NCBI GenBank assembly: GCA_040751955.1
Contig: JBFMFY010000007.1
Location: 23,949-87,948, forward strand
Reading direction: 5' to 3'
DNA length: 64,000 nucleotides
Source of the DNA: Bacteroidota bacterium
GTDB lineage: Bacteria > Bacteroidota > Ignavibacteria > UBA10030 > UBA8401
Position 1 is the first letter of the stretch; every line of letters starts with the position of its first letter. Below the pieces are notes generated by a model. That model ran no database searches and was not told the origin of the DNA. It worked only from the letters and a program-made list of their open reading frames with translations. A program made the position numbers and the translations under genes. Below are positions 7,455 to 37,584 of the stretch, piece after piece.

Positions 7455-7977
7455 TGGGAGGTTTTGCGGTGTGTAATGTTTTAGAAAAATGTTAAGTCTC
7501 ATTTTTCCCCTCGTAGAGGGGGATTAAGGGGGAGGAGTTGTGAATCAGGAAAAAGCCGGGAAAGACAACCACTACGGATATAACAGCAGACTACAACCAT
7601 TTGCGCGGGCGAACAGAAATGGGATGACGAAAGCCGAAGCATGTCTGTGGAAATATGTTCTGCGTGCGGGAATGATGAAAGGGTACGGTTTTCGGCGCCA
7701 GCGTCCGGTGCTGAACTATATAGCAGATTTTATGTGCAAGGAATTGATGTTGATAATTGAAGTCGACGGCTTCACGCATCAATTTGAAGAGACGATCAAG
7801 AAAGACAAGATCAGGCAACAGCGATTGGAAGAGGCAGGGTTTATTGTGTTGAGATTTACTGATGATAACGTGCTACATAGTATTGAAAACGTTCGTCAAC
7901 AAATTTTGTTTACTGTTGAGACGATCGAAAAGCGAAGGGGAATTTCCTCCCCCGTACCCCCTCAAGGAGAGGGATAG
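7421..7977 (+). mobile_element. DUF559 endonuclease-like cassette with flanking GC-rich hairpins, inserted between the SBP and permease genes.
   Basis: Three hairpins bracket the cassette. The first is CCCCCTC-agg-GAGGGGG at 7430-7450. The second is CCCCTC-gta-GAGGGG followed by GGGGGAGGAG at 7503-7536. The third is CCTCCCCCGTACCCCCTCAAGGAGAGGG at 7946-7975, at the gene's 3' end. The cassette sits between co-oriented SBP and permease genes. Confidence 0.55.
7540..7977 (+). CDS. DUF559 domain protein (Vsr-like / restriction-endonuclease-fold family).
   Basis: The 145-aa product contains 'LW..L....GYGFRRQRPVLNYIADFMC....IIEVDGFTHQ........RQQRLEEAGFIVLRFTDDNV', typical of PF04480. It starts with GTG, or possibly at an internal M. 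Confidence 0.7.
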   Translation: MNQEKAGKDNHYGYNSRLQPFARANRNGMTKAEACLWKYVLRAGMMKGYGFRRQRPVLNYIADFMCKELMLIIEVDGFTHQFEETIKKDKIRQQRLEEAGFIVLRFTDDNVLHSIENVRQQILFTVETIEKRRGISSPVPPQGEG

Positions 7978-8004
7978 TTGTTAGATCAATTTAAGTTTGT
8001 ACCC

Positions 8005-8889
8005 ATGTTCAACAACACCCGCACCGCCGCCGCATGGATCTTTCTCTCTCCCGCCATGGGAGTGATCGGAATATTTTTTGTTTTGCCCGTGCTCGCGGCA
8101 TTCGTGCTCAGTTTTACCGACTTTGATATATACGCACTTGGCAATTGGGATTATATTCGCTTTGTCGGATTTCAGAATTATGTCAGAATCATCGAAACGC
8201 CGCTCTTCTGGAAGGCACTGAAAAATACATTCTACTTTGTTCTGGTCGGCGGACCGTTATCTGTTGCTGTTTCCCTCGGAACTGCGCTAATGTTGAATTC
8301 GAAACTCGCAAAGTTCAGGTCGCTGTACCGCACAATCTATTTTCTGCCTGTCGTTTCTAGTCTCATTGCAGTAGCGATCATCTGGCGTTACCTCTATCAT
8401 CCTGCGCATGGCATTCTCAATTACCTTCTGTCGCAATTCGGCATTGCGCCGATCGATTGGCTTGGCGATCCCGACATTGCAATGCCGGCAATCATTCTTA
8501 TGGCGGTGTGGAAGAACTTCGGATACAACATGCTCATCTTCATTGCCGGTCTTCAAAATATTCCCGACGATCTGTATGAAGCGGCGCATCTGGACGGCGC
8601 AAGTTGGTGGCAGCAGTTCAAAGAGATCACGATACCAATGTTGAAGCCGACCACCGTCTTTGTCGTGATGATCACGATCATCGGTTACTTTCAATTATTC
8701 GCCGAACCGTACGTGATGACGCAGGGGGGACCGTTGAATTCTACGACGAGCATTGTGTTGTTGATGTATGAGCAAGGATTTCGCTGGTGGAGCATGGGGT
8801 ATGCTGCTGCGATTGCATTTGTTCTGTTTGCCATAATTTTAGTCTTTACGGTTGTTCAAATGTTTCTGCAACGAAGCGTGCGACAGTAA
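8005..8889 (+). CDS. Carbohydrate ABC transporter permease (MalF/UgpA-like).
   Basis: Six TM segments are predicted and the EAA loop 'EAAHLDGASWWQQFKEITIPMLKP' is present. The start is ATG at 8005 ('MFNNTRTAAAWIFL'). Confidence 0.8.
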   Translation: MFNNTRTAAAWIFLSPAMGVIGIFFVLPVLAAFVLSFTDFDIYALGNWDYIRFVGFQNYVRIIETPLFWKALKNTFYFVLVGGPLSVAVSLGTALMLNSKLAKFRSLYRTIYFLPVVSSLIAVAIIWRYLYHPAHGILNYLLSQFGIAPIDWLGDPDIAMPAIILMAVWKNFGYNMLIFIAGLQNIPDDLYEAAHLDGASWWQQFKEITIPMLKPTTVFVVMITIIGYFQLFAEPYVMTQGGPLNSTTSIVLLMYEQGFRWWSMGYAAAIAFVLFAIILVFTVVQMFLQRSVRQ

Positions 8890-8894
8890 CAATT

Positions 8895-8976
8895 AAGTCA
8901 TCCGATGAGTGTATTAAATTCTTATGATAAGTCTGGGAAATCGTGCGCATCAAAGTAGTGATTCATCGGATGACTT
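8895..8976. repeat. Perfect 14-bp inverted repeat with a loop of about 54 nt (AAGTCATCCGATGA ... TCATCGGATGACTT), in the intergenic region between the two permease genes.
   Basis: The arms at 8895-8908 and 8963-8976 are exact reverse complements of each other. Confidence 0.7.
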
Positions 8977-8990
8977 CTTTCTAAAAACAA

Positions 8991-9812
8991 ATGAGTAAAA
9001 GAGCAACACAAATACTTCTCAACATCGGATTGCTGCTAATCGGGTTGACGACGCTTGCACCCGTTCTCTGGATGGTGTCGGCATCATTGATGGCGTCCGG
9101 AGAAGCGGGAACATTTCCGCCGCCGATGCTGCCCAAACAGCCGACGATCGAACATTATCTCGCATTGACCGAACGGCTGAATATGGGGAGATACTTCCTC
9201 AACAGTTTCATCATCGCAAGTGCAGCAACGCTCATTTCCACACTCTTGAATTCAATGGCGGGATTTGCTTTCGCTAAGTATCATTTCAAAGGAAGGGATA
9301 AATTATTCAACATGCTGCTTGGTGGTTTGGTCGTACCGGCGCAGGTAACAATGCTGCCACTCTTTCTGATGTTGAAAACGATGGGATTCGTCAACACGTA
9401 TGTGGGGGCGATTATTCCCGGCATGGCGAGCATCTTCGGAATATTTTTAATACGACAATTTGTAATTGCAATTCCTGACAGTTTAATCGAAGCGGCGCGT
9501 ATCGACGGCGGAAGCGAATTCAGAATTTACCGTACCGTTATTCTTCCGCTCTGTCGTCCTATTCTGTTTACACTCGCACTCTTTACATTCATGGGAACGT
9601 GGAATGACTTCATGTGGCCGCTGATCATCATGACCGATCAATCCAATTACACGCTGCAGGTGGGACTTGCAAGTCTTATGGGTGAACACACGCTCGATCT
9701 CGAACTGATGATGGCGGGCTCGGTCATTACCATCATTCCCGTCCTTGCCTTGTTCCTTCTCTTCCAGCGCCACTATGTTCGCGGCATTATGGTGGGCGGG
9801 GTGAAAGAGTGA
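8991..9812 (+). CDS. Carbohydrate ABC transporter permease (MalG/UgpE-like).
   Basis: The EAA motif 'IEAARIDGGSEFRIYRTVILPLCRP' is present and six TM segments are predicted. Confidence 0.8.
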   Translation: MSKRATQILLNIGLLLIGLTTLAPVLWMVSASLMASGEAGTFPPPMLPKQPTIEHYLALTERLNMGRYFLNSFIIASAATLISTLLNSMAGFAFAKYHFKGRDKLFNMLLGGLVVPAQVTMLPLFLMLKTMGFVNTYVGAIIPGMASIFGIFLIRQFVIAIPDSLIEAARIDGGSEFRIYRTVILPLCRPILFTLALFTFMGTWNDFMWPLIIMTDQSNYTLQVGLASLMGEHTLDLELMMAGSVITIIPVLALFLLFQRHYVRGIMVGGVKE

Positions 9813-10029
9813 CATTCATTGTTTGCAACTCAAGTCCTCTCTGTGTGTTGGGAATGTGTGAAAGGGAGAGGGGATTGAGGGATGTGTAAAAAATTAAAAG
9901 AACAATAAAGACTGTTAACTGTATTGTAGTATTTCAAATTTGAAGGAATAACACACCCCTTGCGCCTCTCACCAACACTACAAGCCAATGCTGGAGAGGG
10001 GAATTTGAATCTTAAAAGAGATTGTTAGT

Positions 10030-13000
10030 ATGAAAAAATTTCTTCTCTCCTTGTCCATGGTGATTTCAATTCTCCATTCCCAATCATCCCGTACCTCGCT
10101 TCTTCTCGACGACTGCAACAGCGTAAAGTCTTGGACAACATTCCGATCCACCGGCGTTGAAGTAACACATCAGAACGATCTTGGGACACTGCGCTTTGAT
10201 ATCGAATTTCCGAAGGGTTCCGGTTATGGCGGTGTATTCAGGAATTTTAATTCACATCTGCCCGAGAATTACGATATCTCGTTCATGATGAAATCAACTG
10301 TTCCGGTCAATAACTTCGAAGTAAAAATCAGCAGCGACAGCGGTGGCGGTACGATCTGGTGGGTGAACAATAAAAATTATACGTATCCGGCGGATTGGAA
10401 ACGGATCGTAATAAAAAAACGCCATCTCAGTTTTGCATGGGGACCGAATTATGCGGCGCATCCGTCGAAATTATCCCGATTGGAAATTGTTGTAACTGCA
10501 GGGACCGGAGGAAAGGGGAGTGTCTGGATCGACGATGTTACATTAACGACGCTGCCGGCATCGCCGAAAGAAATTCCGCTCCCCTCAGTTTCTGCATCAT
10601 CCTTTATGGAGAAGAACAGCGAACCATCGAATGTGCTTCCGGGACGAAAAGGATCTTGGATCAGTAAATCAAAGAAGAATGAATGGATCGAACTCGATCT
10701 GAAGTATGAAAAAGAATTCGGCGGAGTAAATCTTCTATGGGATCCTTCGCTGAAAGGATTATCGTACTCCATCCTTACGTCATTTGACCGGAAGAAATAT
10801 GATACGATCTATTCCGTAACGAAGGGAAAATCGGGGAATGTTCACCACTTCCTTCCCGAATCTGAAGCACGGTATGCCCGTTTATTATTGAAAGGCAATG
10901 CGTCGAATCAACCGTTCAAACTTGAAGAATTTTCCGTCATCGCCAGCGAATCGCTCTCCACGCCGAATCATTTTTATGAACGGATTGCCGCCGCATCTCC
11001 GTCCGGATTTTACCCGCGCTACTTCTTAAAGCAGCAGCCGTACTGGACAGTCGTCGGCGTTCCTTCAGACACGCGCGAAGCGTTGTTCAATGAGGATGGC
11101 GTATTTGAAGTGGACAGGCAAAAATTTTCCATCGAACCGTTCATCGCACTCGATCACAACAGGAATATTTTCCACTGGGCGAACGGAAAGAGTGAACAGT
11201 CTCTCGAGGAAAATTATCTCCCAATCCCAACGGTGACACGCACCTATGAAGATGTTGAACTGCGAACCACCCTGCTGGCAGCGGGTGATGCGGGAAGTTC
11301 TGCGGTGATGGCGCGTTATGTTGTGAAGAACTCATCACCGAAAAATCAAAAAGGGTCGTTCTACATTTCGCTCCGACCATTCCAGGTAAACCCTACGTCG
11401 CAGTGGCTCAATTACGATGGAGGTTTTGCAAAGACAAATACAATTTCCATTGTTGGAAATCGTGCAACGGTTGATGATAAAACGGTGATCGTCTCCGGAA
11501 TTCCGACCGCGTTCGGTGCATCGGCGATCGAACAAGGGGATATTACGGATTTCATTGCGCAGAATTCGATCCCACAATCTCCATTTGCAATGCAGTCACA
11601 AGGGATGACCTCCGGTGCGTTTCAATATTCATTCGATTTGAAACCGGGCGATTCGCTTGTGGTGATTGCAGCAGTTCCCTTTACGCCGGAAGGAAACCGA
11701 TGGACAAACGGATTGCCGACTGCTGACGAGTTCGAAAAAACATTTGCTGAAGTGAAATCATTCTGGAAGAAAACATTGAACACTGTCGAGTTCAATGTGC
11801 CGCCCGATGCACAGCGTCTTGTGAATATCATCCGCTCGAATCTTGCCTACATCCTCATCAACAAAGACAAATTCGGATTCCAGCCCGGCTCCCGTTCGTA
11901 CGAGCGATCGTGGATCCGCGACGGTTCGATGACCTCCGACGCGCTGTTGAAACTCGGCATCACCGAAGAACCGAAGAAATATCTTGAATGGTACGCACCG
12001 TACCAATACGAAAGCGGCTCTGTTCCTTGTGTCGTCGATACGCGGGGTCCGGACCCTGTGCCGGAACATGACAGTCACGGTCAGTTGATCTTCGCCTGCA
12101 TGGAATATTTCAGATTTACGAACGATACTGCATTCCTCCGTGCCCGATGGAATAATATTGCTGCAGCGGTCAGTTTTATTCAATCGCTCCGAGCGCAGCG
12201 GATGACGCCGGAATTCCGCGACGGGAACGACGAAAAGCAGGCATTCTACGGATTGGTGACGGAATCCATCAGCCACGAAGGATATTCAGACAAAGCGATG
12301 CATTCGTACTGGGATAACTTTTTCGTGTTGAAAGGATTGAAGGACGCATCTGCCGCCGCTGCCGTGCTTGGCAAACAAAAAGAAGCACGCGAGTACGACT
12401 CACTGGCAAAAGCATTCCGCATTGATCTGTACAATTCCATTGCCCTGGCGATGAAGAACAGGAAGATCGATTACATCCCCGGGTGCGTAGAAAAAGGAGA
12501 TTTCGATGCGACATCAACATCGATTGCGCTCTTTCCAAACGGAGAAATGAAGTTCATTCCACAACCGGCATTCAACACAACATTTGATAAATATTTTGAC
12601 TGGTTTGTTCAAAGAGCAGAAAACAAACTAACATGGGATGCATACACTCCATACGAAATTCGTAACGTTGGAACATTCATTTATCTCGGACAAAAAGAGC
12701 GTGCGCATTATGCGCTTGATTATTTTTTAAAAGACCAGCGTCCGCAGGGATGGAATCACTGGGCGGAAGTTGTTGCGAACGGATATCGCACGATGCGCTT
12801 CATCGGCGATATGCCGCATACATGGGTCGGTTCTGATTACATCAACGCCGTCCGTGCGATGTTTGTGTACGAAATTGATGATGACCACTCCATCGTGATG
12901 GGTGCGGGATTGAAAGAGGAGTGGGTGAAAAAAGGATTATCAATAAAAGGGTTGCCGACACATTACGGGACACTCTCGTATTCTGTTTCTTCTCCATCCG

Positions 13001-27900: not shown

Positions 27901-28160
27901 CCCTCTTTTGAGACTGAACGGATCTCTTTGACATCTTTCAATCCCTTCAACGCGCGCTCGAGCGGCTGGGAAATTAATCCTTCGATGTCAATGGGTGAAA
28001 CGCCGATGTACGGAGTTGAAACGATAACGAGAGGAATGGTAATGTCCGGCGTTGCTTCCCGCGGCAAATCATTGTACGACGTGTACCCAAAGATGACGAT
28101 CAAAATCATTAACAGGTAAACGGCTGTTTTATTATCAACTGCTATGTTCCAGATTTTCAT
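24942..28160 (-). CDS. Efflux RND transporter permease subunit (AcrB/CzcA superfamily).
   Basis: The N-terminus is 'MKIWNIAVDNKTAVYLLMILIVIFG'. The protein is 1072 aa with 12 TM segments and large periplasmic loops. Confidence 0.9.
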   Translation of the reverse strand: MKIWNIAVDNKTAVYLLMILIVIFGYTSYNDLPREATPDITIPLVIVSTPYIGVSPIDIEGLISQPLERALKGLKDVKEIRSVSKEGLSTISIEFNTGIDIDEALRRVRDKVNSTRSQLPADILDPIVSEINISEFPIMYVNAVGDVGAARLKNVAEELQDKIESVPGVLRADIVGGLEPEIQVNVDVYRMNAYQVSFDDVSGAIRVENLSIPGGTIETKEKNLTVRVPGEFKQVKPLEDIILKIQNGKPIYLRDVATVKSSFEDRQTYSRLNGNEVVTLAVRKRAGENLVRIADEVKRIIAVEQSNLPDGIKLEISSDQSRFIKRMVHELENSIYTGMFLVVLALFMFFGFKNSLLISTAIPLSMFTGYIVLSAMGITLNMVVLFSLLLVLGILVDDAIVVIENTYRHQQEYGEEPNAAAKNAAGEVFIPVLTSTVTILSAFIPLLFWPGIVGEFMKFLPITLIVTLTASLFVAYVISPVQAAKWIDYKREIKKAKFNLEHPHWYKKYNPFTWLYHEVDDKFFPWMQKNYVQVIRWTLHNKKKTMLGSFILLLTIIVLFGLFNKGVEFFPNTEPAQISISIECPSGASLEITNGIAKILEERLEKIPGRKDVEFIVSRIGTSDNVFDFGGQGTSNKGSVAINFFEKDFRKQSTFVTMEEVREKLAGIAGADLRLTKQQMGPPVGAPVNIEVSGEDYTQLATLSKQIREKIKDVPGLVDLKDDYNTGRPEVEIIVDREKAGLFWTSTGQIASTVRAAIAGVEASKYRVGEDEYKIRVRLKEDQRTAPADLENLRINFMNRRGQLLSIPLTSVATIRRTTSVTDIRRKDMKRVITVSGDVEGRVQSEVINDVKARIAGIEMPNGYSVKLTGSEEEQQKASDFLSRAFVITLLLVFLIMVMEFNSMKVPFVIMISVILSLIGVLFGLLVTRTALSVMMTGVGIVALAGIVVRNGIILLDFVKHKHNEGGLSLDDALLEAGRVRLRPVLLTAAAAVLALIPMGTGFDFNWTEFHFVTGSESAGFWRPLAVAIIFGLTFSTFLTLVVVPTAYSLVDEWTEKIKEWMKEKFVKEKEY

Positions 28161-28174
28161 GCTATGTACTCCTG

Positions 28175-28296
28175 AGTATCATGCTTCGACGCAGTGCAAT
28201 AGAGTATCGTCATCCTGTGCAAGTCCCGATGCATTGTATCGGGACGCGTCGAAGGATGATCCATTTTGCGTATTGCACCTTGTTCAGCATGACTAT
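28175..28296. repeat. Full-length nested-palindrome element of about 120 nt between the RND pump and adaptor genes.
   Basis: The sequence reads catgcttcgacgcagtgcaatagag..GTCATCCTGtgcaag-[tcccgatgcattgtatcggga]-cGCGTCGAAGGATGAtc...ttgttcagcatgactat. The outer arms (atagtcatcctg / cagcatgactat) and the inner arms (tcatcct / aggatga) are both inverted repeats. Confidence 0.7.
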
Positions 28297-28315
28297 CTTT
28301 TTATTCTCTATTTTT

Positions 28316-29350
28316 TTATTCCGTCACCACAACCGGCGAGCCGTTGATCAGTTTCTGATACCCGGTGACAATCAAATGTTCTCCGATGTTCAATCCCGAT
28401 GTCACCTCAACGAGATTTCCCTGGCGGCCGCCGATTGTAATGCGCCGTTCTTCCGCAATGCCGTTGTTGTTCACATAAACAACGTACCGGTCGCGGTCTA
28501 CCAGTTGAATGATATTCTCACTGACGAGGATTGCGTCGGTTTTTTTCCTCCGGACAAGATTCACCTTTGCGACCATTTCAGGTTTGATCCTGCCGTGCGG
28601 ATTCTGCAGCACGATCTCGATGAGCATCGTGCGGTTCGCAGCCGAAACGGTTGAACTGACGAACGATACAGTGCCGTTCAGCACTTCACCGGGAACAGCG
28701 TCAAACGTCACCGATGCGGGTGTTCCTGTTTTTATCGTGCCGGCATATAATTCGGGAATCTCCGCTTGTATCTTAATCATGGATGTGTTCACTACCCGGG
28801 CAATCGGAACGCCGGGCGGAGCCATTTCGCCGGCATTCGGCATCGTATTGTCAACCACGCCGTCAATCGGACTGCGAAGTTGCGTCCGTTCCCAGCGCGC
28901 TTTCATCAAGTCGGCGTTGGCTTTTGCGGCGTCACGGCTGTAGATCATATTCTTGTACTGCAATTCGCTGATCCCTTGCTGTTCGTACACCGACTGCTGC
29001 TTTTCGACATTGAGTTGCGCGATCCGGTATTGCGCTTCGGCGGCGTCGTATCCCGCTTTGATCACTTCATCTTTGAGAATAACGATAAGATCACCTTTCT
29101 TCACATGGTCTCCCTTTTTTTTCACCCACTCTTTCACGACACCCCCTTCTTCGGGGCTTATCATCACATCTTCAAACGCTTTCACCGTACCGGCAACCTG
29201 AATGCCGTCGATCATGGGAGATGGTTTGATTTGTTGGACCGTAACGTTGACCGGTTGGACTTTTTGCGTGCTGCCTGTTTCTTCTTTTGTGCAGGAAGAA
29301 ACGCCGAGAAGGAAAACACAGATGACAACTGCGGTTGATATTTTTTTCAT
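28316..29350 (-). CDS. Efflux RND transporter periplasmic adaptor subunit (membrane fusion protein, HlyD/AcrA family), lipoprotein.
   Basis: The lipobox is 'LLGVSSC'. The protein shows biotinyl/lipoyl-like hairpin and beta-barrel MFP architecture. Confidence 0.85.
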   Translation of the reverse strand: MKKISTAVVICVFLLGVSSCTKEETGSTQKVQPVNVTVQQIKPSPMIDGIQVAGTVKAFEDVMISPEEGGVVKEWVKKKGDHVKKGDLIVILKDEVIKAGYDAAEAQYRIAQLNVEKQQSVYEQQGISELQYKNMIYSRDAAKANADLMKARWERTQLRSPIDGVVDNTMPNAGEMAPPGVPIARVVNTSMIKIQAEIPELYAGTIKTGTPASVTFDAVPGEVLNGTVSFVSSTVSAANRTMLIEIVLQNPHGRIKPEMVAKVNLVRRKKTDAILVSENIIQLVDRDRYVVYVNNNGIAEERRITIGGRQGNLVEVTSGLNIGEHLIVTGYQKLINGSPVVVTE

Positions 29351-29382
29351 TGATGGATTCCTTTGTTATTCATTTCTTTGGA

Positions 29383-29500
29383 ACATGCTTCGACGCAACG
29401 CAATAGAGCATAGTCATCCTGAGCAAATGCCGATGTTGGTATCGGCATGCGTCGAAGGATGACGCAATTCTATAAATTGCGCTTTGCTCAGCATGACTAT
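29383..29500. repeat. Second full-length copy of the same nested-palindrome element, between the adaptor and TolC-like genes. It is about 85% identical to the 28175-28296 copy.
   Basis: The sequence reads gaacatgcttcgacgcaacgcaatagagcatAGTCATCCTGAGCAAa-[tgccgatgttggtatcggca]-tGCGTCGAAGGATGAcgcaattctataaattgcgctTTGCTCAGCATGACTAT. Confidence 0.7.
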
Positions 29501-29525
29501 ATTTTTTTTGAAACGAGGACATTTC

Positions 29526-30917
29526 TTACTCCTCCTCTTCCCGCGCATACTCCGGCAGGCGGCCGAGCATCGAATCGAGTTCGGCAGCAGCGACGAGATA
29601 ATCATAGATCGACTGCATACGGTTCACTTTCGCCTGAGAGAGCGCAAGCTGCGCATCGTTCACTTCCAATTGCGTTGCAGCATTTGTAAGGAAGCGGGCG
29701 GTGACGATCTTGTAGCCACGTTCCGCCGTCTCGACAGTCTTCTGCTGAGCATCGATACGCTTACGCGCCTGGCGCAGGTTTCCGATCACAGAACGTACGC
29801 CCATCTGCAGATTCCGTTCGAGACTTCCTTTTTGTTCTTCTGTTTTCTGTTTCTCCAGCTGCGCCTGTTCAATGCGCGAACTTGTCTGCAGTCCCTGAAA
29901 AAGATTGAGCGAGAATGTCAATCCCACCTGCGATTGTTTGTAAAAGTCGTTCGTCGAAATTCTGTAATCATCTTTGATCGCCGTGTACGAGTACGAACCG
30001 TACGCCGCGATGGTGGGGAGGAAGTTTGCTTTCTCCGCATACACCAATGCATCGTTCAATTCGATCTGATGTTGTACGATGTTGAGAGCCGGGTTCGATT
30101 CCAGTACGGTTTCATTCGCTGTCATCAATATGGATTCGTCCACTTCCTGCAGCGTTAAACTTTCTGCCGGGATGAAGTTCACCGAATCCGCGACGCCGAT
30201 TGTGTTGCGGAGATTGTCAACAGCAAGATTAAAATTTGTCTCGGACTGAATAACAATCGGGCGGAGATTTTCCACGCCGACTGTTGCGCGCAGTTCGTCG
30301 TATTCGGAGACGATGCCCTGTGACCGCATCAATTGCACATTCTTCAGATTTTCTTCTGCATTTTTCAGATTGGATTGCATCATCGTCAGCGCTTCACGTG
30401 CCAGCAGCGCGCCATAATATGCTTTGCGGACTTTTGTTACCGTCTCGACCTTCTTTTGAAGGAAGATATCCCGCGCCATCTTTGAATAGATATTTGCCGC
30501 ACCAACGCCGATGAAGACCGATCCGTTGAAGAGAATCTGCCGCACGTTCAATGCGGCATTGGCAGAATTTGTGGGGGACATTGAGAAAGGGAGCTCGATC
30601 AGTTGACCGGTCGGCTTCGGTACTTTTGCCGAAGAGTCCATCAGTTTCACGAGCGGATAATAGATTGCATCGGGAAAATAACTCTTCGGCTTGGAGACAA
30701 TGTGGTTGAAATTGCCGCTGAGATCGACTGACGGCATCGTGTATCCCCATGCTTCCATCACACGCGCGTCGGAACGCTCCACCTCCAGCCGCGCGGAAAC
30801 GAGCTCGGGATTATGCTGTATCGCCATTTGGACTGCTGCATCGATCGTGAGCGAGAGTTGCGTAGTGTCTTGCGCGGTTAAACCAAGAGGGACCAAAATA
30901 AAAAATGACGATGTCAT
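29526..30917 (-). CDS. Outer-membrane efflux protein (TolC-like OMF).
   Basis: The start is taken at 'MTSSFFILVPLGLTAQ' (ATG ending at 30917), followed by 'IDAAVQMAIQHNPELVSARLEVERS' and two OEP repeats. The ORF-track N-terminal extension to 31208 runs through the repeat elements and is rejected. Confidence 0.8.
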   Translation of the reverse strand: MTSSFFILVPLGLTAQDTTQLSLTIDAAVQMAIQHNPELVSARLEVERSDARVMEAWGYTMPSVDLSGNFNHIVSKPKSYFPDAIYYPLVKLMDSSAKVPKPTGQLIELPFSMSPTNSANAALNVRQILFNGSVFIGVGAANIYSKMARDIFLQKKVETVTKVRKAYYGALLAREALTMMQSNLKNAEENLKNVQLMRSQGIVSEYDELRATVGVENLRPIVIQSETNFNLAVDNLRNTIGVADSVNFIPAESLTLQEVDESILMTANETVLESNPALNIVQHQIELNDALVYAEKANFLPTIAAYGSYSYTAIKDDYRISTNDFYKQSQVGLTFSLNLFQGLQTSSRIEQAQLEKQKTEEQKGSLERNLQMGVRSVIGNLRQARKRIDAQQKTVETAERGYKIVTARFLTNAATQLEVNDAQLALSQAKVNRMQSIYDYLVAAAELDSMLGRLPEYAREEEE

Positions 30918-31165
30918 TGCGAGGGAGCGCAGCGACCGAAGCAATCTGTTGCTTCTGCGACAAAAAAGGAGATTGCTTCGCCAAACAACGGCTCGCAATG
31001 ACAATGCTTTTCTGCTGTTATTCTGAACAAAGTCCCGACGCAGCGTATCTCCTCCGTGTCGGGACGGAGTGAACCCGCCTGCCGGACGGGCAGGGAATCC
31101 ATCTTCTGGATTCTTCGTCGTCCCGCACAACGCGGGACTCCTCAGAATGACACGGTTGAGGTATT
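30895..31165. repeat. Cluster of 5-6 consecutive GC-rich hairpins and repeat modules between tetR and the tolC-like gene. It overlaps the tolC start codon.
   Basis: GTCATTGCGAGGGAGCGCAGCGACCGAAGCAATC lies with its partner GCTCGCAATGAC. The hairpins are gtcccgac..gtcgggac, cctgccggacgggcagg, gaatcca..tggattc and gtcccgcacaacgcgggac. The module 'ctcctcagaatgacacgg' is shared with 33640-33660. Confidence 0.65.
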
Positions 31166-31204
31166 CTGTTATGCTTCTTGTCTGATGTGATTTGTTTTCT
31201 CTTT

Positions 31205-31888
31205 TCATCTGTACCTCGTATTCAATATTCTGTGTAATTCTTCTTTTCCTTTGTCGGTCAGTATGGATTCAATCAACAGTGTCGTGGAGAGTCGAAGCGT
31301 ATGTTTCAGGTCGATATTCATCGTTTCTTTCCAAAGATCGTACTGCGCGTCGATCCGCATCAGCAGCGTTGTCGCATTCGACCAGAGGACGATCGTTATT
31401 TCGACCGGGCTGAGATCGTCCCGCACCAACCCCTGCCGGACACCCTGTTTCAACGCTTCGATGACGATATTCCACAACTGCTGCGCAACAGAGTCGCATG
31501 AGTGCCTCATCTCCGCAGAGACCTGTTTGTGGAATTGCGGCGTCTCGAAGAAATGCATCATGCGGAAATAGTTTTTGTGCTCTTCGTAGAATTTTGAATA
31601 TGTCTCGCTGAGGTTCAGCAGTGTTACGAGGAACGGAGCCCGTGCGTCGATATCGGAGCGGAACATGTCGTTCAGCAGCGACATACCCCGCATCATGACG
31701 GCGAGGTAGAGATCTTCCTTGCTATGATAATAGAGATAGAGAGTTCCTTTGGCTAGCTCCGCCTGTTCTGCGATCTCGTCCATGGTAGCAAGAAGCAGAC
31801 CTTTGTCGAAGAAGACTTTCTGTGCGGCGTCTATGATCGATTCTTTGCGGCTCTCTTTTTCCCGTTCTTTGCGTTCAACGGTGCCCAT
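31205..31888 (-). CDS. TetR/AcrR family transcriptional regulator, likely repressor of the downstream efflux operon.
   Basis: The HTH region is 'SIIDAAQKVFFDKGLLLATMDEIAEQAELAKGTLYLYYHSKEDLY'. Confidence 0.85.
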   Translation of the reverse strand: MGTVERKEREKESRKESIIDAAQKVFFDKGLLLATMDEIAEQAELAKGTLYLYYHSKEDLYLAVMMRGMSLLNDMFRSDIDARAPFLVTLLNLSETYSKFYEEHKNYFRMMHFFETPQFHKQVSAEMRHSCDSVAQQLWNIVIEALKQGVRQGLVRDDLSPVEITIVLWSNATTLLMRIDAQYDLWKETMNIDLKHTLRLSTTLLIESILTDKGKEELHRILNTRYR

Positions 31889-32371
31889 TTTTTTCCACTA
31901 AGGCACGAAGTTACAATTAAGAGTCTCACGTTTCAGGATTCAGGTTTCAGGTTTTTAATCATCAAGGCAGACTTTAAGCATGAGACATGAAATGTGAAAC
32001 CTGAAGCAGTATTCGTGTTTGTGAACTTATAAACAGGGACTGACTTGCGGTCAGTTACTACATGCAAGTCTTGCAAGTTTTTTGTTGGTAAGCAAGAATG
32101 AAATCAGGAAAAATATTTTGTTATTCGGACAAATCGCTCTTGGGAAAACAAACGGAATTGCAGAAAATGAAATCCGGAGAAGAATGTGCTGTATTCAATT
32201 TTTTTCACCGAGAAAAATATCTGTTTTCATTGTCGCTTTTTTCCAACGTAACAATTGTGACATTCTACGGAGATGGGGACGAAGAAGTTGCTAAAATATT
32301 GGCGGGCGTGTGTTACGGAATTTTTGGAAAAAATGTTTGGCAAGTGTGAACAGAATAACTGCGGTTCATTC

Positions 32372-33571
32372 TTACAGTATGTTCCGGTATGATTCAGTGA
32401 TTTCGGATCTCATCATATCGAAGAGCGGTGAATGCAGAGATCGTTTCATAGAAGAAATCAATAGTGTCGCTTCCACATACGCCGCCGTGTACGTCGTGCC
32501 GCGGTACTCGGGATAAAACGGATTAACGGTGATTGCAGCGAGAAGGATAGGTTTACGATACGAGATGATGATGTTGAGTCCGGTCAGTTGTGCAATGTGT
32601 TGTGCGGTGCGCTGCGGCTCGCCGGAAAGAAGGAGGGAGATGGGATCGGTGAAGATAATTTCATGCGGGCGGTCTGCTTCTTGCAGGAGACGAATTCTTT
32701 CGGTAAGTGTTTGCAAACCAATCGATGTAATCAATCCATTGATAATAAGTGGATTCCCGCTTTCGCTGGAACGACAATCCTCTTTATAATGTAATATTAA
32801 CTTTTCGACTTCCGTTGCGTCAATAATGGTTGAGGAGGAGCTCCCGGCAGGTAAAGCGAGATTCTTCGCTTCGCTCGGAATGACATTGATTGAGAAGTTG
32901 TTTTGTTTATTATTCCACTGCGTCTTACCGAATTGAAATAAGAATTCAATCGCTTTCATTTCCTCAACAAGAGCGGCAATGTCGGTTGTCCGTGCTGCGC
33001 CGGTGGTGAAGATGATCTTGTCGACAACAGACATCGGTGCAATACGATTGAGCGAACCATCAACAAAAATATCTTTGCAACCTAAATCTGTCATCTGTCG
33101 CACAACCTTTTCGAGTTCGCTCCGTTTGTTCGGTCCCGCAAGCACAATCAAGCCGGGTGTCTCACATCGCACAATGACGATCTCGCCGAGCGCAGTGTAC
33201 AATCCGGTTTTCTGAATGATGCTCCAGCCTCTCGCCGGCACGCATTGCAACGATGTTGAAGCGATCATTCCATGATGAAGAAAGATGCGCGGCTTCGGAA
33301 GTGATGTGATGTTGTCGATCTCTTCGCCGTCATAGCCGATACTGGTAACGCCGGTTGTCATTCGGAACGAAGTCCCGAAGGGACGAGTGAGGAATCTGGA
33401 CTGAATATGCGGCGGAGAAGCAGATTTCTCGCCTCCTTCGTCGGCTCGAAATGACACCGATGAAGTATTGTCTGCATCCAGAACTCCAAACTGAGATTTG
33501 TGAAGCAGCGCGTTGAGCGTGGTGGTCTTGCCGGTGTTCTTTGCCGTCCCTGCGATGCCGATGATGGACAT
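32372..33571 (-). CDS. P-loop NTPase with a deviant Walker A motif (SIMIBI-class, KxxxGKTT). It may be a B12-enzyme accessory/chaperone. The coding sequence carries two repeat-derived segments.
   Basis: The N-terminus is 'MSIIGIAGTAKNTGKTTTLNAL'. The region 33356-33456 is a palindromic repeat element read in-frame ('VSFRADEGGEKSASPPHIQSRFLTRPFGTSFRMT'). A degenerate repeat remnant lies at 32751-32780 ('RSSESGNPL'). Confidence 0.5.
   Translation of the reverse strand: MSIIGIAGTAKNTGKTTTLNALLHKSQFGVLDADNTSSVSFRADEGGEKSASPPHIQSRFLTRPFGTSFRMTTGVTSIGYDGEEIDNITSLPKPRIFLHHGMIASTSLQCVPARGWSIIQKTGLYTALGEIVIVRCETPGLIVLAGPNKRSELEKVVRQMTDLGCKDIFVDGSLNRIAPMSVVDKIIFTTGAARTTDIAALVEEMKAIEFLFQFGKTQWNNKQNNFSINVIPSEAKNLALPAGSSSSTIIDATEVEKLILHYKEDCRSSESGNPLIINGLITSIGLQTLTERIRLLQEADRPHEIIFTDPISLLLSGEPQRTAQHIAQLTGLNIIISYRKPILLAAITVNPFYPEYRGTTYTAAYVEATLLISSMKRSLHSPLFDMMRSEITESYRNIL
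33356..33456. repeat. Nested-palindrome element embedded in-frame inside the P-loop NTPase coding sequence.
   Basis: The sequence is TGTCATTCGGAACGAAG-tcccgaagggac-...-gagaagcagatttctcgcctccttcgtcggCTCGAAATGACA. Its terminal inverted repeats match the intergenic copies. Confidence 0.6.
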
Positions 33572-33589
33572 AAAAACGAAAATGTGATT

Positions 33590-33695
33590 TGAGGAATTTC
33601 TTTACTGGATTCTTCACTTCATCCCGATCTAAATCATCGGGACTCGTTCAGAATGACACGGTATATTCAGATTTCTCGCTTTGCTCGAAATGACA
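33590..33695. repeat. Repeat element between the P-loop and aminomutase genes.
   Basis: The hairpin tcccgatctaaatcatcggga, 'ctcgttcagaatgacacgg' and 'gatttctcgctttgctcgaaatgaca' are present. The last is the reverse complement of the 35842 module. Confidence 0.6.
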
Positions 33696-33726
33696 AAGGG
33701 AAATGAATATTTCAGAAGTCACATAT

Positions 33727-35526
33727 TTATTGAATGACTGTTCCTTTGCCGAACGTTCCCGGATACGCGCCGTCCTCTTTGCTGCCGAGTGCGCCGGCGT
33801 TGATTGCTTCGGGGAGATTTGCATATGCGGCAACTGTTTCAAGAGTCGATTGGATCTTTCGAACGAAATCATCTGTGAAATTGTCCGCTGCGGCTGTCGG
33901 TTGGAATGATGCATCTCCCATGAACCGGAATGCATCGGTCACGGCGCGGATGGAATCGATGCGCGATGCAATCGTGATGGGTCCGCGTGAGAACGCTTCG
34001 TCAGTTGACGCTATTGTAATTGCATCTACTCCGGCACATGCAGCGAGCGCGGCGTGGTACGATGTGGCATTTGCCGATTGCACGCGTTCTTCCGTCTGCG
34101 TCATGAACGCGATCGGTTCGCCGGGCCAGATCGGTGCATCAACGATCGAACGGAGCGCGCGGATCTTTGCAGCGTTGTAATCGACATAATTCTGTTTCAT
34201 CTGTCCATGCAGAACAATATCCGGTCCGTAGCAGAAGAGAGGTTTCAGGATCGCTTTTGCCCCGAGTTTTTTTCCGAGCATCACGTTGATCAATAATCCC
34301 GCAAGTGATTTTGCAGCAGGCACGCCGCTCAGTTCATCGTTTCCCGGAATGTCGAACGCCATGATATGCTCGGCTGCGATCTTCATCGCAAACAGACCAT
34401 CCACAGTCAATCGCTCAGGATCTGTACCTGCGCCGAGCGATCCGTACACAAGATTGATCTTTGTCATATCGGCGCCCGCTTGTGCGGCGAGATAGATCGT
34501 CTCCGGCGTGTTCAATCCACGGTGTGCGCGGACAGTAAGTAATGTCGAAGGGTCCAGAGATTCCCTCATCAACCGTACATTTTCTTCAGAGGTGATCGTT
34601 CCGTCGTTCTCATGCGTCAGGAGTCCGTGGAGCAATCCTTCGTACCGCGCCTCCCACGACGGATTGATGATGAGGAATCCGTCAACGCCGTACCGCTCGC
34701 AGATCTTTGCGTGAACGATATCCATCGTCGGACATCCGCTGCCGAGGAATTTGAAAATGAGCGGCTGGCGTGCGTTGTGCCGGATATTCTGTTGATGCAG
34801 CGATTGTTTCTGGCGGAGGAGCAGCCGGATATTTTCGACTTCGTTGTCCGTGATGTAGCGGACCCCTTTCGGGAATATTTTTTTGGAATTCGCATCGGCG
34901 ATAACCGGATCGCACAGTGCGTCGTACCGATCCATTAATGATCTTCTGCGGGACGAGTCCGTAACTACGGAGAGTTCCTGACGTATCTTGCATCGTTCTA
35001 TTCCGGCGGACGATTTACCTTCTGCCCAGCGCAACGTTTTTTCCGCAATTGTATCGAGCAGATCGCCGATTCGTCTGTGCCGGAAGGAATAGAAATAGTG
35101 GCACGTGATATCCGGTTTTGTCCGCTCATGGTTGCCGGCGGCGCTGTGCAACGGACGATCTTCAATGTATGCAATCACTTCGTCGATCGATGAGTGTTCG
35201 CCGAATCCTTTGTCGAAGCCGAGTTCCGCGGCAAGTTCCGGTGTGATCGGTTTTCCTCCCAATACTATTTTTGTCGATTCGCGAACGCCTGCAGCATCAA
35301 GCAGGTCGTTGAATCGTGCAAGCAGCTCTGCCACACCGTACCCCAGCGTGCGGCTGACAAGGATGTAATCATACTGTGTTGCCGATGCTTTTTTCACGAT
35401 CTCTTCCATCGAAAGGTCGGGGGGGAGGAGTTCGGTGCAATGTCCGCGCTCTGCAAGAGAATTTTTTATTAGTTTGATGCCGACATCGTGGACCGGATCG
35501 AACGGGACGCAGAGGATCTTTTTCAT
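33727..35526 (-). CDS. Fused cobalamin-binding domain and aminomutase catalytic TIM-barrel protein (lysine 5,6-aminomutase alpha / D-ornithine 4,5-aminomutase E-like).
   Basis: The start is taken at 'MKKILCVPFDPVHDVGIKL'. This N-terminal B12-binding domain carries the DxHxxG motif 'DPVHDVG' and aligns with glutamate mutase S ('VLGVIGSDCHAVGNKIL'). The C-terminal region 'ENVRLMRESLDP...' matches KamD 'ENFRLMREALD'. The Arg/Cys-rich 58-aa N-terminal extension in the ORF track is rejected. Confidence 0.6.
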   Translation of the reverse strand: MKKILCVPFDPVHDVGIKLIKNSLAERGHCTELLPPDLSMEEIVKKASATQYDYILVSRTLGYGVAELLARFNDLLDAAGVRESTKIVLGGKPITPELAAELGFDKGFGEHSSIDEVIAYIEDRPLHSAAGNHERTKPDITCHYFYSFRHRRIGDLLDTIAEKTLRWAEGKSSAGIERCKIRQELSVVTDSSRRRSLMDRYDALCDPVIADANSKKIFPKGVRYITDNEVENIRLLLRQKQSLHQQNIRHNARQPLIFKFLGSGCPTMDIVHAKICERYGVDGFLIINPSWEARYEGLLHGLLTHENDGTITSEENVRLMRESLDPSTLLTVRAHRGLNTPETIYLAAQAGADMTKINLVYGSLGAGTDPERLTVDGLFAMKIAAEHIMAFDIPGNDELSGVPAAKSLAGLLINVMLGKKLGAKAILKPLFCYGPDIVLHGQMKQNYVDYNAAKIRALRSIVDAPIWPGEPIAFMTQTEERVQSANATSYHAALAACAGVDAITIASTDEAFSRGPITIASRIDSIRAVTDAFRFMGDASFQPTAAADNFTDDFVRKIQSTLETVAAYANLPEAINAGALGSKEDGAYPGTFGKGTVIQ

Positions 35527-35807
35527 TGCGGGTCGCTCTCCAGCCAGTGGTACTTTTGTGCAGGACGATGGATGTATTTGCGGATACGGACACGGACGCC
35601 GTACCCGTCGAATTCTTCGAACATGACATCGACATCTCCGAGATTCATTTCTTTTCCGAGCTGCAGCGCAAGCGCATGTCCTTGATGTGCATTGGTACAC
35701 ATCAGGTATGCTTCAACATCGACCGCGTCGATAACTTTATTGAGGGCTGACATGTTTAACCTATTATAATTCCATGCAATCGGTTTTAAGAAAATTTCAA
35801 ATTTCAA
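35523..35807 (-). CDS. Small hypothetical protein, translationally coupled (ATGA overlap) to the aminomutase gene. It could be a small subunit or partner (OraS-like role).
   Basis: The 94-aa ORF has its stop overlapping the aminomutase ATG. The real start may be 'MSALNKVIDAV' at about 35753. No recognisable motif was found. Confidence 0.3.
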   Translation of the reverse strand: MKFEIFLKPIAWNYNRLNMSALNKVIDAVDVEAYLMCTNAHQGHALALQLGKEMNLGDVDVMFEEFDGYGVRVRIRKYIHRPAQKYHWLESDPQ

Positions 35808-35841
35808 ATAAATCGAGACATCTGAAAAATTATCTTGGTAC

Positions 35842-35928
35842 TGTCATTTCGAGCGAAGCGAGAAATCTCGCCGTTGAATTTGAAAAGAAAAACGAGATTC
35901 CTCGTTAAACAGCAACTCGGAATGACAT
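35842..35928. repeat. Repeat element upstream of the small-ORF/aminomutase pair.
   Basis: The sequence is TGTCATTTCGAGCGAAGCGAGAAATCTCG ... CGAGATTCCTCGTTAAACAGCAACTCGGAATGACA. Confidence 0.6.
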
Positions 35929-36004
35929 TGATTTGAGATTTTTCAGATGGTCCCAATCTCAAATTCCATAACACGGAACCTTACATGTATAGCGCAAAGT
36001 TTTA

Positions 36005-37471
36005 CTATTCAAATGTTCCCGCATGGCTGCAGACGATCTCGATCAACATCACCAGCGCGCGGACGATCATCTGTGCACGCTCGTGGATCAACTGTCCCTT
36101 TGAATCGCACGTGCCGAGTCCGGGAGAGATGAAGAAGTTGGCGTCGTACGCGATCGTCGGAATGATTCCCATCGCCGTCATTCCGTCCTGGAACAGATGC
36201 GAACCAGCGTACATATCTTCGATGGAGAAAATGGGAATACCGAGTTTTCCGTTCTTCCAACTCTCTTCGTAGTTGATCTCTACCGCGCCGCTATTTCTGC
36301 TTCTGTATATCTTGAAGAAGGGACGGATTCGGGAATCGATCTTTGCAAATTCTTTCTCACAGATCTCGTACAGTTCATCCACCGGCTTCGTCACAACTTC
36401 AGGATGATCGCGGAGAACTTTCAACGCCGCAACTTGTCCCGACAATCCTTCTTTTCCAGGATCGTGCGTAACGAAAGCGGCTTTGCCGTACGATGCGGTG
36501 GTACCGTACCGGTTTCCATGCATGCCGAGCGCGCGGCGGATCGGAACGAGCACATCTTCTTTTCCGATGATCAATCCACTCGTCGGTGAACCGGTTGCTT
36601 TATCCATACTATAGATCATCACATCGGCGCCGATCTTTTTGATGCTGTTGCCAATAATCGGGAGTCCCCACGCGTTGTCGATGATGTAGGGGACATTGTA
36701 TTCTTTTGCAAGCGAAGCCAAACCTTTTTGCAGCAGCGGAGTTCCGTCGGAATCTTTTTCTCCGTACCCGTATCCCGGTGTGTCGTACCCGAGCGACGCA
36801 AAACCAGAAAGCATCGTCTCGTGCCGCTTTGCCTGCTTCCCGATCTCTGTCAACGATTCTTTTGCATTGATATTCTTCATTAATGGAACAGGATAATATT
36901 TTATTCCATGCACGGGATATTCGGCGCCAGCCATCGGAACAAAGATGGTGTCGAAGTTCGCCTGACGTTTTCCGTAGAAACCCAATTCGCCTGCGGTACT
37001 GCCGCGATCTGCAAGGATATCTTTATACTTCGGAGGGAAGGGGCGTCCGTATGATGCTTGATGATGTGCATGACGTTCCAACGGAGCAATGTATCTCGAG
37101 CGATAGTTGTCGCCGCGTCCCTGAAATGGCGGTGTCATCAAGCATTCGAACGTCGTCCATAATCCGGCTTCGCATGTGTTCACGGGACATGCATCATATT
37201 CATCCCCGTACGTATCTTTAATGATCTCGCGGATCTGATCGACATAAACGGCGAGCGGAACCACTTTTTTCCCTTCAGTCGCCATCGCGTGTTCGATATC
37301 GTCACGAAGCGGCGAGGGGCAGCCGGAGATTGCGCCGGTGAGTCCGATCGCCCCTTTTAATTCTGCCGGAATGTTGAGAGATTCAGCCGCTTTTTTCGCT
37401 TCGGCATAAATTTGTTGTGTGCGTTGTTGCAGCTGTTTGTACATCTGAAATTTGAATTTAGGTGCAGGCAT
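36005..37471 (-). CDS. PLP-dependent enzyme of the SelA-like family (L-seryl-tRNA selenium transferase-like fold). It is a candidate beta-subunit of a 2-amino-4-ketopentanoate-thiolase-like enzyme.
   Basis: 'IYSMDKATGSPTSGLIIGKEDVL' matches the SelA-type PLP-lysine region 'FSGDKLLGGPQAG..G'. The protein is 488 aa. Confidence 0.5.
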   Translation of the reverse strand: MPAPKFKFQMYKQLQQRTQQIYAEAKKAAESLNIPAELKGAIGLTGAISGCPSPLRDDIEHAMATEGKKVVPLAVYVDQIREIIKDTYGDEYDACPVNTCEAGLWTTFECLMTPPFQGRGDNYRSRYIAPLERHAHHQASYGRPFPPKYKDILADRGSTAGELGFYGKRQANFDTIFVPMAGAEYPVHGIKYYPVPLMKNINAKESLTEIGKQAKRHETMLSGFASLGYDTPGYGYGEKDSDGTPLLQKGLASLAKEYNVPYIIDNAWGLPIIGNSIKKIGADVMIYSMDKATGSPTSGLIIGKEDVLVPIRRALGMHGNRYGTTASYGKAAFVTHDPGKEGLSGQVAALKVLRDHPEVVTKPVDELYEICEKEFAKIDSRIRPFFKIYRSRNSGAVEINYEESWKNGKLGIPIFSIEDMYAGSHLFQDGMTAMGIIPTIAYDANFFISPGLGTCDSKGQLIHERAQMIVRALVMLIEIVCSHAGTFE

Positions 37472-37519
37472 GGTTGGTTTCCTTTTTTAAATGTGTTGAG
37501 CAATTTTTCTTGCCGTTGT

Positions 37520-37580
37520 TGTCATTCCCGCGAAAGCGGGAATCCAGGATCTGGATGCCGGCGTACGCTGGCATGACGAG
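37520..37580. repeat. Repeat element GTCATTCCCGCGAAAGCGGGAATCC plus a second module, between the PLP enzyme gene and the small ORF.
   Basis: A perfect hairpin ATTCCCGC-gaaa-GCGGGAAT is present. The overlapping ORFs translate to the spurious peptides '...FPRKRESRIWMPAYAGMT' and 'WIPAFAGMT'. Confidence 0.7.
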
Positions 37581-37584
37581 GTAT

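Follow-up and report, generated by a model that had tools for sequence, protein, structure and literature searches.

How does a gene come to carry a complete palindromic repeat in its reading frame, and does it remain a working gene afterwards? The question is raised by a 64,000-nucleotide (nt) stretch of contig JBFMFY010000007.1, part of a metagenome-assembled genome (MAG) of a Bacteroidota bacterium (the whole stretch is hereinafter designated the window), wherein a P-loop NTPase gene contains a 101-nt palindromic element at 33356-33456. The element is probably an in-frame insertion in a working KamB-like gene, similar to the Rickettsia palindromic elements (RPE) and close in architecture to repetitive extragenic palindromic (REP) doublets (REPINs) or miniature transposable elements bearing inverted repeats (MITEs); its mobility mechanism and the neutrality of the encoded peptide are what we infer.

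The in-gene element and its host protein

The preliminary description of the window reported a palindromic element of about 100 nt, read in frame and without a stop codon inside a P-loop NTPase gene, and the sequence bears this out. The element is translated as VSFRADEGGEKSASPPHIQSRFLTRPFGTSFRMT (residues 39-72) and consists of two inverted GTCAT-hairpin units, A and B, separated by a 26-nt spacer; it carries terminal inverted repeats, TGTCATT...AATGACA, as MITEs do. Two of its six reading frames are fully open, and the host gene reads one of these two. The insert had been placed immediately after the Walker A motif, which needs correction: the motif covers residues 8-17, and the insert follows the next helix, at about residue 28-30.

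The protein database contains 1280 homologues of the host protein, and NCBI annotates an identical protein in a Bacteroidota MAG. We aligned 120 sequences, namely the window protein (hereinafter WIN) and the best 119 of the 1280 homologues; the median length among the 120 is 349 amino acids (aa) vs 399 aa for WIN. Comparison with homologues, a check suggested at the outset, finds no equivalent of the segment in 118 of the 119: residues 28-67 are occupied in a single other sequence, P0002, the nearest orthologue (458 aa, Ignavibacteriales MAG GCA_016182545.1). In insert-free homologues, a variable 6-residue linker joins the α1 helix to the GVT(S/G)IGYDGE strand, and the net insertion of 40 aa equals the 101-nt element plus ~19 nt. 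All invariant residues of the family are kept in both WIN and P0002.

The loci of the five closest homologues are syntenic (GntR - DAPDH - DUF6917 - 489 aa - 76 aa - B12 aminomutase - KamB-like - TetR - OEP - MFP - RND), and we therefore regard them as orthologues. A codon alignment puts the elements of WIN and P0002 at one and the same codon; their orientation and unit order agree as well, and the site is empty in P0003, P0004 and P0005. The genomes of P0004 and P0005 (loci L003 and L004, respectively) do carry the repeat family, so the missing insert is not due to a missing family. The number of nonsynonymous substitutions per site (dN) is 0.17 between WIN and P0002, 0.167 between P0004 and P0005 and 0.26-0.30 for the remaining pairs among the five orthologues. 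The simplest history suggested by this distribution would be a single gain on the branch leading to WIN and P0002.

Over the 329 codons common to all five orthologues, the number of synonymous substitutions per site (dS) between WIN and P0002 is 1.11, giving a dN/dS of 0.15. Both genes carry the insert, and purifying selection therefore acted while the insert was present. The insert itself behaves differently: its dN/dS is ~0.5, it differs by four codons in length between the two genes, and its identities at the three codon positions are flat (0.71/0.83/0.69) vs 0.83/0.875/0.53 in the core, the pattern to be expected of a passenger that is tolerated under weak constraint. The marks of a pseudogene (broken frame, stop codons, dN/dS near 1) are all missing from the host gene, whose open reading frame (ORF) is intact. 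Judged by its sequence, it is not a pseudogene, and the earlier suggestion that it is on its way to becoming one fails on the intact ORFs and invariant residues of both carriers, the low dN/dS and the family-profile score that the protein attains once the insert is taken out (see below).

An AlphaFold2 model based on the 120-sequence alignment has a mean predicted local distance difference test score (pLDDT) of 85.8 (core >90) and a predicted template modelling score of 0.86. Residues 29-71 are modelled as coil with block-mean pLDDT values of 37-59, between a helix (residues 15-28) and a strand (residues 72-77), and the insert is thus predicted to form a disordered loop between α1 and β2. Foldseek returned weak matches of the model to SIMIBI-class P-loop NTPases (ParF, MeaB, MinD and MobB), and a PDB sequence search with the host family gave no match.

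Folding of the element, another check that had been proposed, yields a long imperfect hairpin on either strand (RNA, -36.9 kcal/mol, z-score -1.9), and the P0002 copy folds likewise (-41.5 kcal/mol, z-score -1.7). The outer GTCAT arms pair together, as do the inner ...GAGAAATCTG/CAGATTYCTC... segments. The inner stem is perfect in P0002 and contains two mismatches in WIN with no compensating change, and the hairpin is therefore losing its pairing in WIN and is not kept up. Rfam searches of the whole window at gathering thresholds and of 28000-38000 at E<=1 matched nothing except a tRNA; no terminator-like sites were found in 32300-33800. A homologue search with a 42-aa query containing the insert peptide returned no candidates. 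An intein or intron was considered and rejected: the insert is 34-40 aa long, matches no RNA family and belongs to a repeat family that is dispersed through intergenic DNA.

The host protein matches the NCBIfam model NF052386 (KamB, the reactivase subunit of lysine 5,6-aminomutase) with 180.1 bits, split into two stretches; the equivalog cut-off is 210 bits. In silico deletion of residues 30-69 gives one continuous match of 198.8 bits, still below the cut-off, and insert-free relatives reach 188.7-199.2 bits, likewise below it. From its sequence the host protein is thus KamB-like, but no certified KamB equivalog. In common with KamB, it matches the profile over its whole length and is a P-loop NTPase encoded next to a B12-binding aminomutase gene: directly upstream and in the same orientation lies a gene (33727..35700) for a B12-binding domain and an aminomutase-type TIM barrel. 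It differs from KamB in its score, even without the insert, and in its partner, a fused ~600-aa enzyme with B12-binding and TIM-barrel parts and of uncertain substrate. The features discussed here and below are collected in Table 1.

Table 1 Host gene, in-gene repeat copies and reference repeats, in window coordinates
Feature	Position	Strand	Remarks
KamB-like P-loop NTPase gene (host)	32372..33571	-	399-aa ORF, start MSIIGIAGTAKNTGKTT; intact coding sequence AB1728_03820 at NCBI
Walker A / P-loop GTAKNTGKTT, residues 8-17	33521..33550	-	columns G8-T17 invariant or nearly so in two alignments
Whole variable linker, residues 28-73	33353..33490	-	6 residues in homologues; net gain of 40 codons
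Composite palindromic element (site 1), 101 nt, TGTCAT...ATGACA	33356..33456	.	reads TGTCATTCGGAACGAAG...CTCGAAATGACA; two inverted GTCAT-hairpin units
Unit A, GTCATTCGGAACGAA-GTCCCgaaGGGAC-GAGTGAGGAATC, long type with inner hairpin	33357..33396	+	nearest family variant L001:11325, GTCATTTCGAACGAAGTCCCAAAGGGACGAGTGAGAAATC
Unit B, GTCATTTCGAGCCGACGAAGGAGGCGAGAAATC, inverted vs unit A	33423..33455	-	36/39 identical to P0002 copy, first 6 nt of spacer counted
Site 2, GTCATTCCGAGCGAAGCGAAGAATCT, translated ..NVIPSEAKNL..	32859..32884	-	1 mismatch in 26 vs unit at 35843, 0 expected; 90% over 30 nt
Site 3, eroded unit GTCGTTCCAGCGAAAGCGGGAATCC, translated ..DCRSSESGNP..	32751..32775	-	2 mismatches in 25 vs 37521-37545, 0 expected; 93% over 28 nt
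Two tandem intergenic units just upstream of host gene start	33609..33694	-	short type 33669-33694, long type 33609-33657
Intergenic composite, GTCATTGCGAG subfamily	30913..31002	.	arms match extra insert of P0002
Intergenic composite, inverted pair	35843..35926	.	reference for short unit GTCATTTCGAGCGAAGCGAGAAATC; repeat comparison
Intergenic composite	37521..37577	.	reference for GTCATTCCCGCGAAAGCGGGAATCC unit matched by site 3; repeat comparison

The repeat family in the window and beyond

The units of the family have the form (T)GTCAT, then a self-complementary stem that varies between copies, then ATC(C/T). The window holds ~19 units, 15 of them intergenic, arranged singly, in tandem or as inverted pairs, of which there are six (among them 28209-28293, 29413-29497, 30913-31002, 35843-35926 and 37521-37577). 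The termini of the in-gene element had been said to match this intergenic family, and this holds: the terminal pattern GTCATTYSGARCRAAG has six matches in the window vs 1.04 expected, a number reached in 0 of 100 shuffles. An exactly complementary 5-nt stem occurs in 13 units (shuffled mean 3.2, maximum 7), and these 13 use seven stem sequences, including ATTCC, ATTTC, ATTGC, ATTCT and ATGCC. The core of the short unit, CGAGCGAAGCGAG (e.g. at 35843-35868), contains GCGAAGC, described in the literature as a DNA mini-hairpin of unusual stability; it can be drawn as C-G, G.A, A.G, G-C and C-G around a GAA loop.

The long unit of the tandem pair just upstream of the host gene (GTCATTCTGAACGAGTCCCGATG..ATCGGGAYGAAGTGAAGAATC) is also found, ~90% identical, at the orthologous intergenic position in L003 (237-286) and L004 (3782-3832). 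This identity contrasts with a gene dS of 1.4-1.6, at which synonymous sites are saturated, and with unalignable flanks. Identity so far above that of neutral DNA, seen also in arms that are the same between genomes and across phyla, could reflect selection on the units, repeated replacement or conversion from active copies, or very strict mobility requirements.

Besides the composite element (site 1), the host gene contains two further copies. The preliminary description pointed to one eroded in-frame copy, which is real (site 3), and overlooked another (site 2). Site 2, located in a second low-confidence stretch of the model (residues 221-250), is recognisable in all five close orthologues in progressively eroded form and is an older event common to them; its inner hairpin is 21 nt longer in P0002. 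Site 3 lies in a modelled loop (residues 267-274), and the residues around it have an occupancy of 0.02-0.03 in the 120-sequence alignment. At this site, WIN and P0002 carry palindromic units of equal length (25 nt), GTCGTTCCAGCGAAAGCGGGAATCC and GTTATGTCCGCCGCGGCGGATATCC, respectively, which are identical at 14 of 25 positions; that of P0002 has a perfect 14-nt palindrome. Template switching within quasi-palindromes, a known mutational mechanism, could explain the two palindromes.

P0002 alone has a further in-frame insert of 141 nt (47 aa; ..GHCEGAQRPKQSP...RLLRQTTARNDN..), both arms of which match the intergenic element at 30913-31002 of the window at every position (35/35 and 33/33). The arm identity indicates that the 141-nt insertion is young and that the family was still active after the two genomes had separated. 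When L001 6685-6800 (the P0002 locus) is compared with window 30900-31015, ~8 nt of 3' flank (AATGNTTT) beyond the arms are common to both; from this alignment the mobile segment may extend past the GTCAT...ATGAC core. A different kind of change is seen in the P0004 and P0005 genes, which lack ~28 residues that form a helix in WIN and distant homologues. One intact 50-nt unit (GTCATTCTGAAC...GCGAAGAATCC; L003 888-937 and the same place in L004) replaces that helix and spans WIN sites 2 and 3, and the helix loss may be a repeat-mediated deletion or replacement.

All insertion events in the host gene lineage are multiples of three in length and lie in loops, as one would expect if purifying selection on the host gene weeds out other outcomes. 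The proposed selection for frame-preserving insertions stands in this sense only, as purifying selection that removes frame-breaking or stop-containing insertions of an element with two open frames among six. One gene lineage records at least four temporally separate insertion events, all in loops, and offers a natural experiment on which positions of a SIMIBI-type NTPase tolerate insertions of 10-47 residues.

Repeat units also affect gene calls nearby. The mechanical ORF of the OEP gene (29526-31208, minus strand) extends upstream through three open-frame units (30913-31002 and 31151), with the true start probably at about 30890. In L001, too, the OEP gene as called (8500-10059) takes in repeat units, at 8546-8640. 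Such repeats call for caution in annotation: they lengthen real proteins, lower family-model scores (180 vs 199 bits for the host protein) and create spurious N-terminal extensions (OEP, 29526..31208).

To follow the family beyond this lineage, we scanned genome contigs for GTCATTYCGAGCRAAGCGAGRAATC, a 25-mer pattern with three two-fold degenerate positions. Exact matches occur in at least 120 genome contigs from at least 15 phyla, including Planctomycetota, Bacteroidota, Acidobacteriota, Gemmatimonadota, Nitrospirota, Omnitrophota, Chloroflexota, Bacillota, Armatimonadota, Thermodesulfobacteriota, Patescibacteria, Pseudomonadota, Verrucomicrobiota and Myxococcota; cultured Hymenobacter and Luteimonas isolates are among the carriers. 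The matches listed comprise 131 copies, to which the following counts refer. The base preceding GTCAT is T in 111 of them, and 62 have an inverted partner within 130 nt, forming composites of 53-153 nt. Composite lengths leave remainders of 0, 1 and 2 on division by three in 26, 17 and 19 cases, respectively, showing no enrichment for multiples of three across phyla. Among the combinations of copy and reading frame screened, 18 are free of stops over at least 80 codons on each side.

Three of these in-gene copies were compared with solved homologues. The repeat forms an extra in-frame segment in MurB of a gut Bacteroidales MAG, in the Lhr helicase of Luteimonas saliphila (L070), just past the Walker A helix, and in a DnaE-like polymerase of an Acidobacteriota genome, where it adds ~46 aa to the PHP domain; the same DnaE-like site is hit in a second Acidobacteriota genome. 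In-frame colonisation by the GTCAT family is therefore not peculiar to the window. The Lhr insertion as a whole measures ~118 aa and contains both low-complexity A/Q/T-rich repeats and an entire GTCAT composite (..TVIPSEARNLEVSAEQISRFARNDRR..), at a position that parallels the window insert.

The exact 25-mer is rare in viral contigs (17 stretches among 2.9 million contigs), and blastn at E<=0.01 matched an intergenic composite to no plasmid or phage; hence no vector is evident. Full-text literature searches, with incomplete coverage, for the sequence of the repeat and for the peptides that it typically encodes returned unrelated primer matches only. Exact 25-mers from Patescibacteria to Pseudomonadota, across at least 15 phyla, together with sequence kept at orthologous intergenic sites, raise the idea, which we advance tentatively and consider rather doubtful, that GTCAT-hairpin units are an undescribed, essentially pan-bacterial mobile hairpin family that recurrently seeds in-frame loop insertions in conserved enzymes. 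If true, RPE-like insertion would be a general way in which protein loops evolve outside Rickettsia, via a mobilising or homogenising mechanism. The cross-phylum 25-nt identity and the orthologous-site conservation pose a testable question: what mobilises or maintains the unit?

The preliminary description paired the in-gene element with a DUF559 insertion in a GH2 gene of the same window. This companion case is indeed an in-frame fusion within one ORF, but the element is of a different type, a selfish element distinct from the hairpin repeat. The 1032-aa ORF (9-3107, plus strand) contains a DUF559 domain (Vsr-like endonuclease; residues 297-403, PF04480, 123.6 bits), which is complete and in frame, with the GH2 Ig-like domain (167-257) before it and the GH2 TIM barrel (430-576) after it. 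An ABC substrate-binding gene and its permease gene are separated by a free-standing DUF559 gene (7540..7977), which has a different hairpin repeat (CCTCCCCC...GGGAGGGGG) on either side, at 7412-7455 and 7938-7981. A literature search on DUF559 plus hairpin found nothing relevant.

Probable insertion history and rival explanations

The following course of events probably accounts for these observations. A non-autonomous palindromic element of REPIN/MITE-like architecture, in which a pair of "GTCAT + hairpin + ATC" units is arranged in inverted orientation, would have entered the variable surface linker between helix α1, which follows the P-loop, and strand β2 of the KamB-like NTPase, in the common ancestor of the window genome and the Ignavibacteriales MAG encoding P0002. 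Since the length of the insert is divisible by three and its reading frame contains no stops, the gene would have stayed open, and the element would now be translated as a floppy loop of ~40 residues, tolerated and largely neutral. The host gene has stayed functional under purifying selection, with the element slowly decaying through stem mismatches and in-frame indels relative to the orthologue. The gene lineage would have been hit at least three further times, each time in a loop (site 2, site 3 and the 141-nt insert of P0002).

Several points weigh against this course of events. The inner hairpin of unit A (12 nt) and the palindromes at site 3 differ between WIN and P0002, as might result from independent or repeated events at these sites or from conversion between copies. 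Unit B is 92% identical between the two genes, above the synonymous-site identity of the gene, which, in small numbers, may point to constraint on the nucleotide sequence. The flanks show no consistent target-site duplication, and divergence (dS > 1) blurs the insertion boundaries. All-against-all clustering of the ORFs within 4 kb on either side of 120 copies yielded only generic families and no enriched one, transposases and nucleases included, and tblastn with RAYT (REP-associated tyrosine transposase) and IS200 TnpA queries, run on the window and 125 loci, found no cognate RAYT with GTCAT repeats. The sole tblastn match is a gene for a RAYT-like HUH transposase in an Acidobacteriaceae MAG (L069, 217-705), 0.9 kb from a GTCAT unit; this gene is flanked on both sides by a different REP of its own (GCGGCGCTTAAGCGCCGC...CTCTTCCACG) and is not associated with the GTCAT unit.

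The least probable alternative, to which we give almost no credence, is an assembly or binning artefact. The window does come from a metagenome-assembled genome, and repeats can cause mis-joins inside genes; against this, GCA_016182545.1, assembled independently in another study, also has the insert at that codon, in a diverged form, and both the frame and the flanking gene sequence are continuous. Hardly more credible is a decaying pseudogene that is still open by chance. Three repeat-derived segments in one gene and a profile score of 180 vs a cut-off of 210 might suggest decay, but the insert carriers show a dN/dS of 0.15 over 329 codons at a dS of 1.1, they keep the invariant residues, the fold outside the loops is predicted with confidence, NCBI calls the coding sequence intact, and relatives without the insert score below the cut-off as well. 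Exaptation, by which the new loop beside the nucleotide-binding site would serve partner docking or regulation of the NTPase, for example, appears improbable, though less so. Retention of the insert in two lineages over a dS of ~1 is in its favour, as is the identity of 12 of 14 residues in the N-terminal part (SFRA.EGGEKSAS) between the orthologues, and the insert follows the P-loop helix, close to the presumed place of switch I, going by SIMIBI NTPases, a class to which the fold matches are weak. The dN/dS of ~0.5 in the insert, the flat codon-position identities, the 4-codon indel and the strongly diverged second half argue otherwise, as do the predicted disorder and the absence of the loop from all other family members, close ones included.

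Two further explanations seem unlikely to a similar degree, slightly less so than exaptation. One assigns the element a role at the nucleic-acid level, wherein an mRNA or DNA hairpin would affect translation, transcript stability or processing in the aminomutase operon, the kind of effect that REPs have in certain operons. The long hairpin fold, a third-position identity of 0.69 in the element compared with 0.53 in the core, the ~90% conserved related unit just upstream in three genomes with unalignable flanks, and the exact 25-mers common to several phyla are all consistent with such a role. Its probability is lowered by the modest fold z-scores (-1.0 to -1.9), by stem mismatches in WIN where P0002 is perfect, without compensation, by the lack of a terminator-like signal or Rfam family, and by orthologues that keep the operon without the element. 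The other explanation is that WIN and P0002 acquired their insertions independently at a hot-spot, or that the copies are repeatedly overwritten from other family members, in which case the shared position would not date the insertion. The differing inner hairpin of unit A, whose WIN version is a canonical family variant, the two different palindromes of equal length at site 3, and arms so nearly identical across genomes and phyla that their identity says little about age all favour this explanation. The same codon, orientation, order of unit subtypes and 11-codon extra leader in both copies point instead to common descent, and the divergence of the spacer and unit A is roughly as expected for old shared ancestry.

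Comparison with known palindromic repeats

By sequence, the architecture of the GTCAT units most resembles that of REP/REPIN elements, including bacterial interspersed mosaic elements (BIMEs), which are mobilised by RAYTs of the Y1 HUH type. Common to both are short imperfect palindromes whose 5' motif is conserved and whose stem varies yet remains self-complementary, inverted doublets that form a long hairpin, a mostly extragenic location, many copies per genome and no obvious target-site duplication. The covarying stem behind a conserved 5' motif and the inverted doublet are both found in the GTCAT units, whereas the GTAG/GGAG-type 5' tetranucleotide of REPs is not, the units starting with (T)GTCAT. 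Classical REPs are, moreover, extragenic by definition, and GTCAT units are also translated inside genes.

With MITEs, the element shares terminal inverted repeats, small size, the lack of coding capacity of its own and occasional in-frame insertion into genes. In-frame fusions are described for QMITE1 of Coxiella, intragenic enterobacterial repetitive intergenic consensus (ERIC) sequences, Anabaena MITEs and Correia elements (PMC10969869, PMC5896051), and are summarised as occasional events in Coxiella, enterobacteria and Anabaena (PMC10969869). For the GTCAT element, no parent insertion sequence (IS) and no consistent target-site duplication were identified, and its covarying stems are more REP-like than IS-end-like.

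The closest parallel for the in-gene copies is provided by the RPE, palindromic repeats that lie in frame in unrelated genes and are translated into extra stretches that the fold accommodates (Ogata et al. 2000, 2002, as summarised in PMC10969869). Both kinds of element are palindromic, non-autonomous and ~100-150 nt long, occur within and between genes, sit in frame in unrelated genes and leave their host genes functional. The window element is such a translated in-frame palindrome, and the AlphaFold2 model, a prediction, places it in a surface loop compatible with the fold. The hosts differ, free-living Bacteroidota/Ignavibacteria-type MAGs here vs obligate intracellular Rickettsia, and so does the sequence family. 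The window element is also modular, built of 25-50-nt GTCAT-hairpin units that occur singly as well; its copies in the window are mostly intergenic (15 of ~19 units), and exact 25-mer copies of its short unit are spread over at least 15 phyla. Given its host taxon and GTCAT unit, it is very unlikely to belong to the sequence families RPE-1 to RPE-10, and we would regard it as an analogue of the RPE. In-frame colonisation of genes by palindromic repeats, long held to be a peculiarity of Rickettsia, occurs in free-living environmental bacteria as well.

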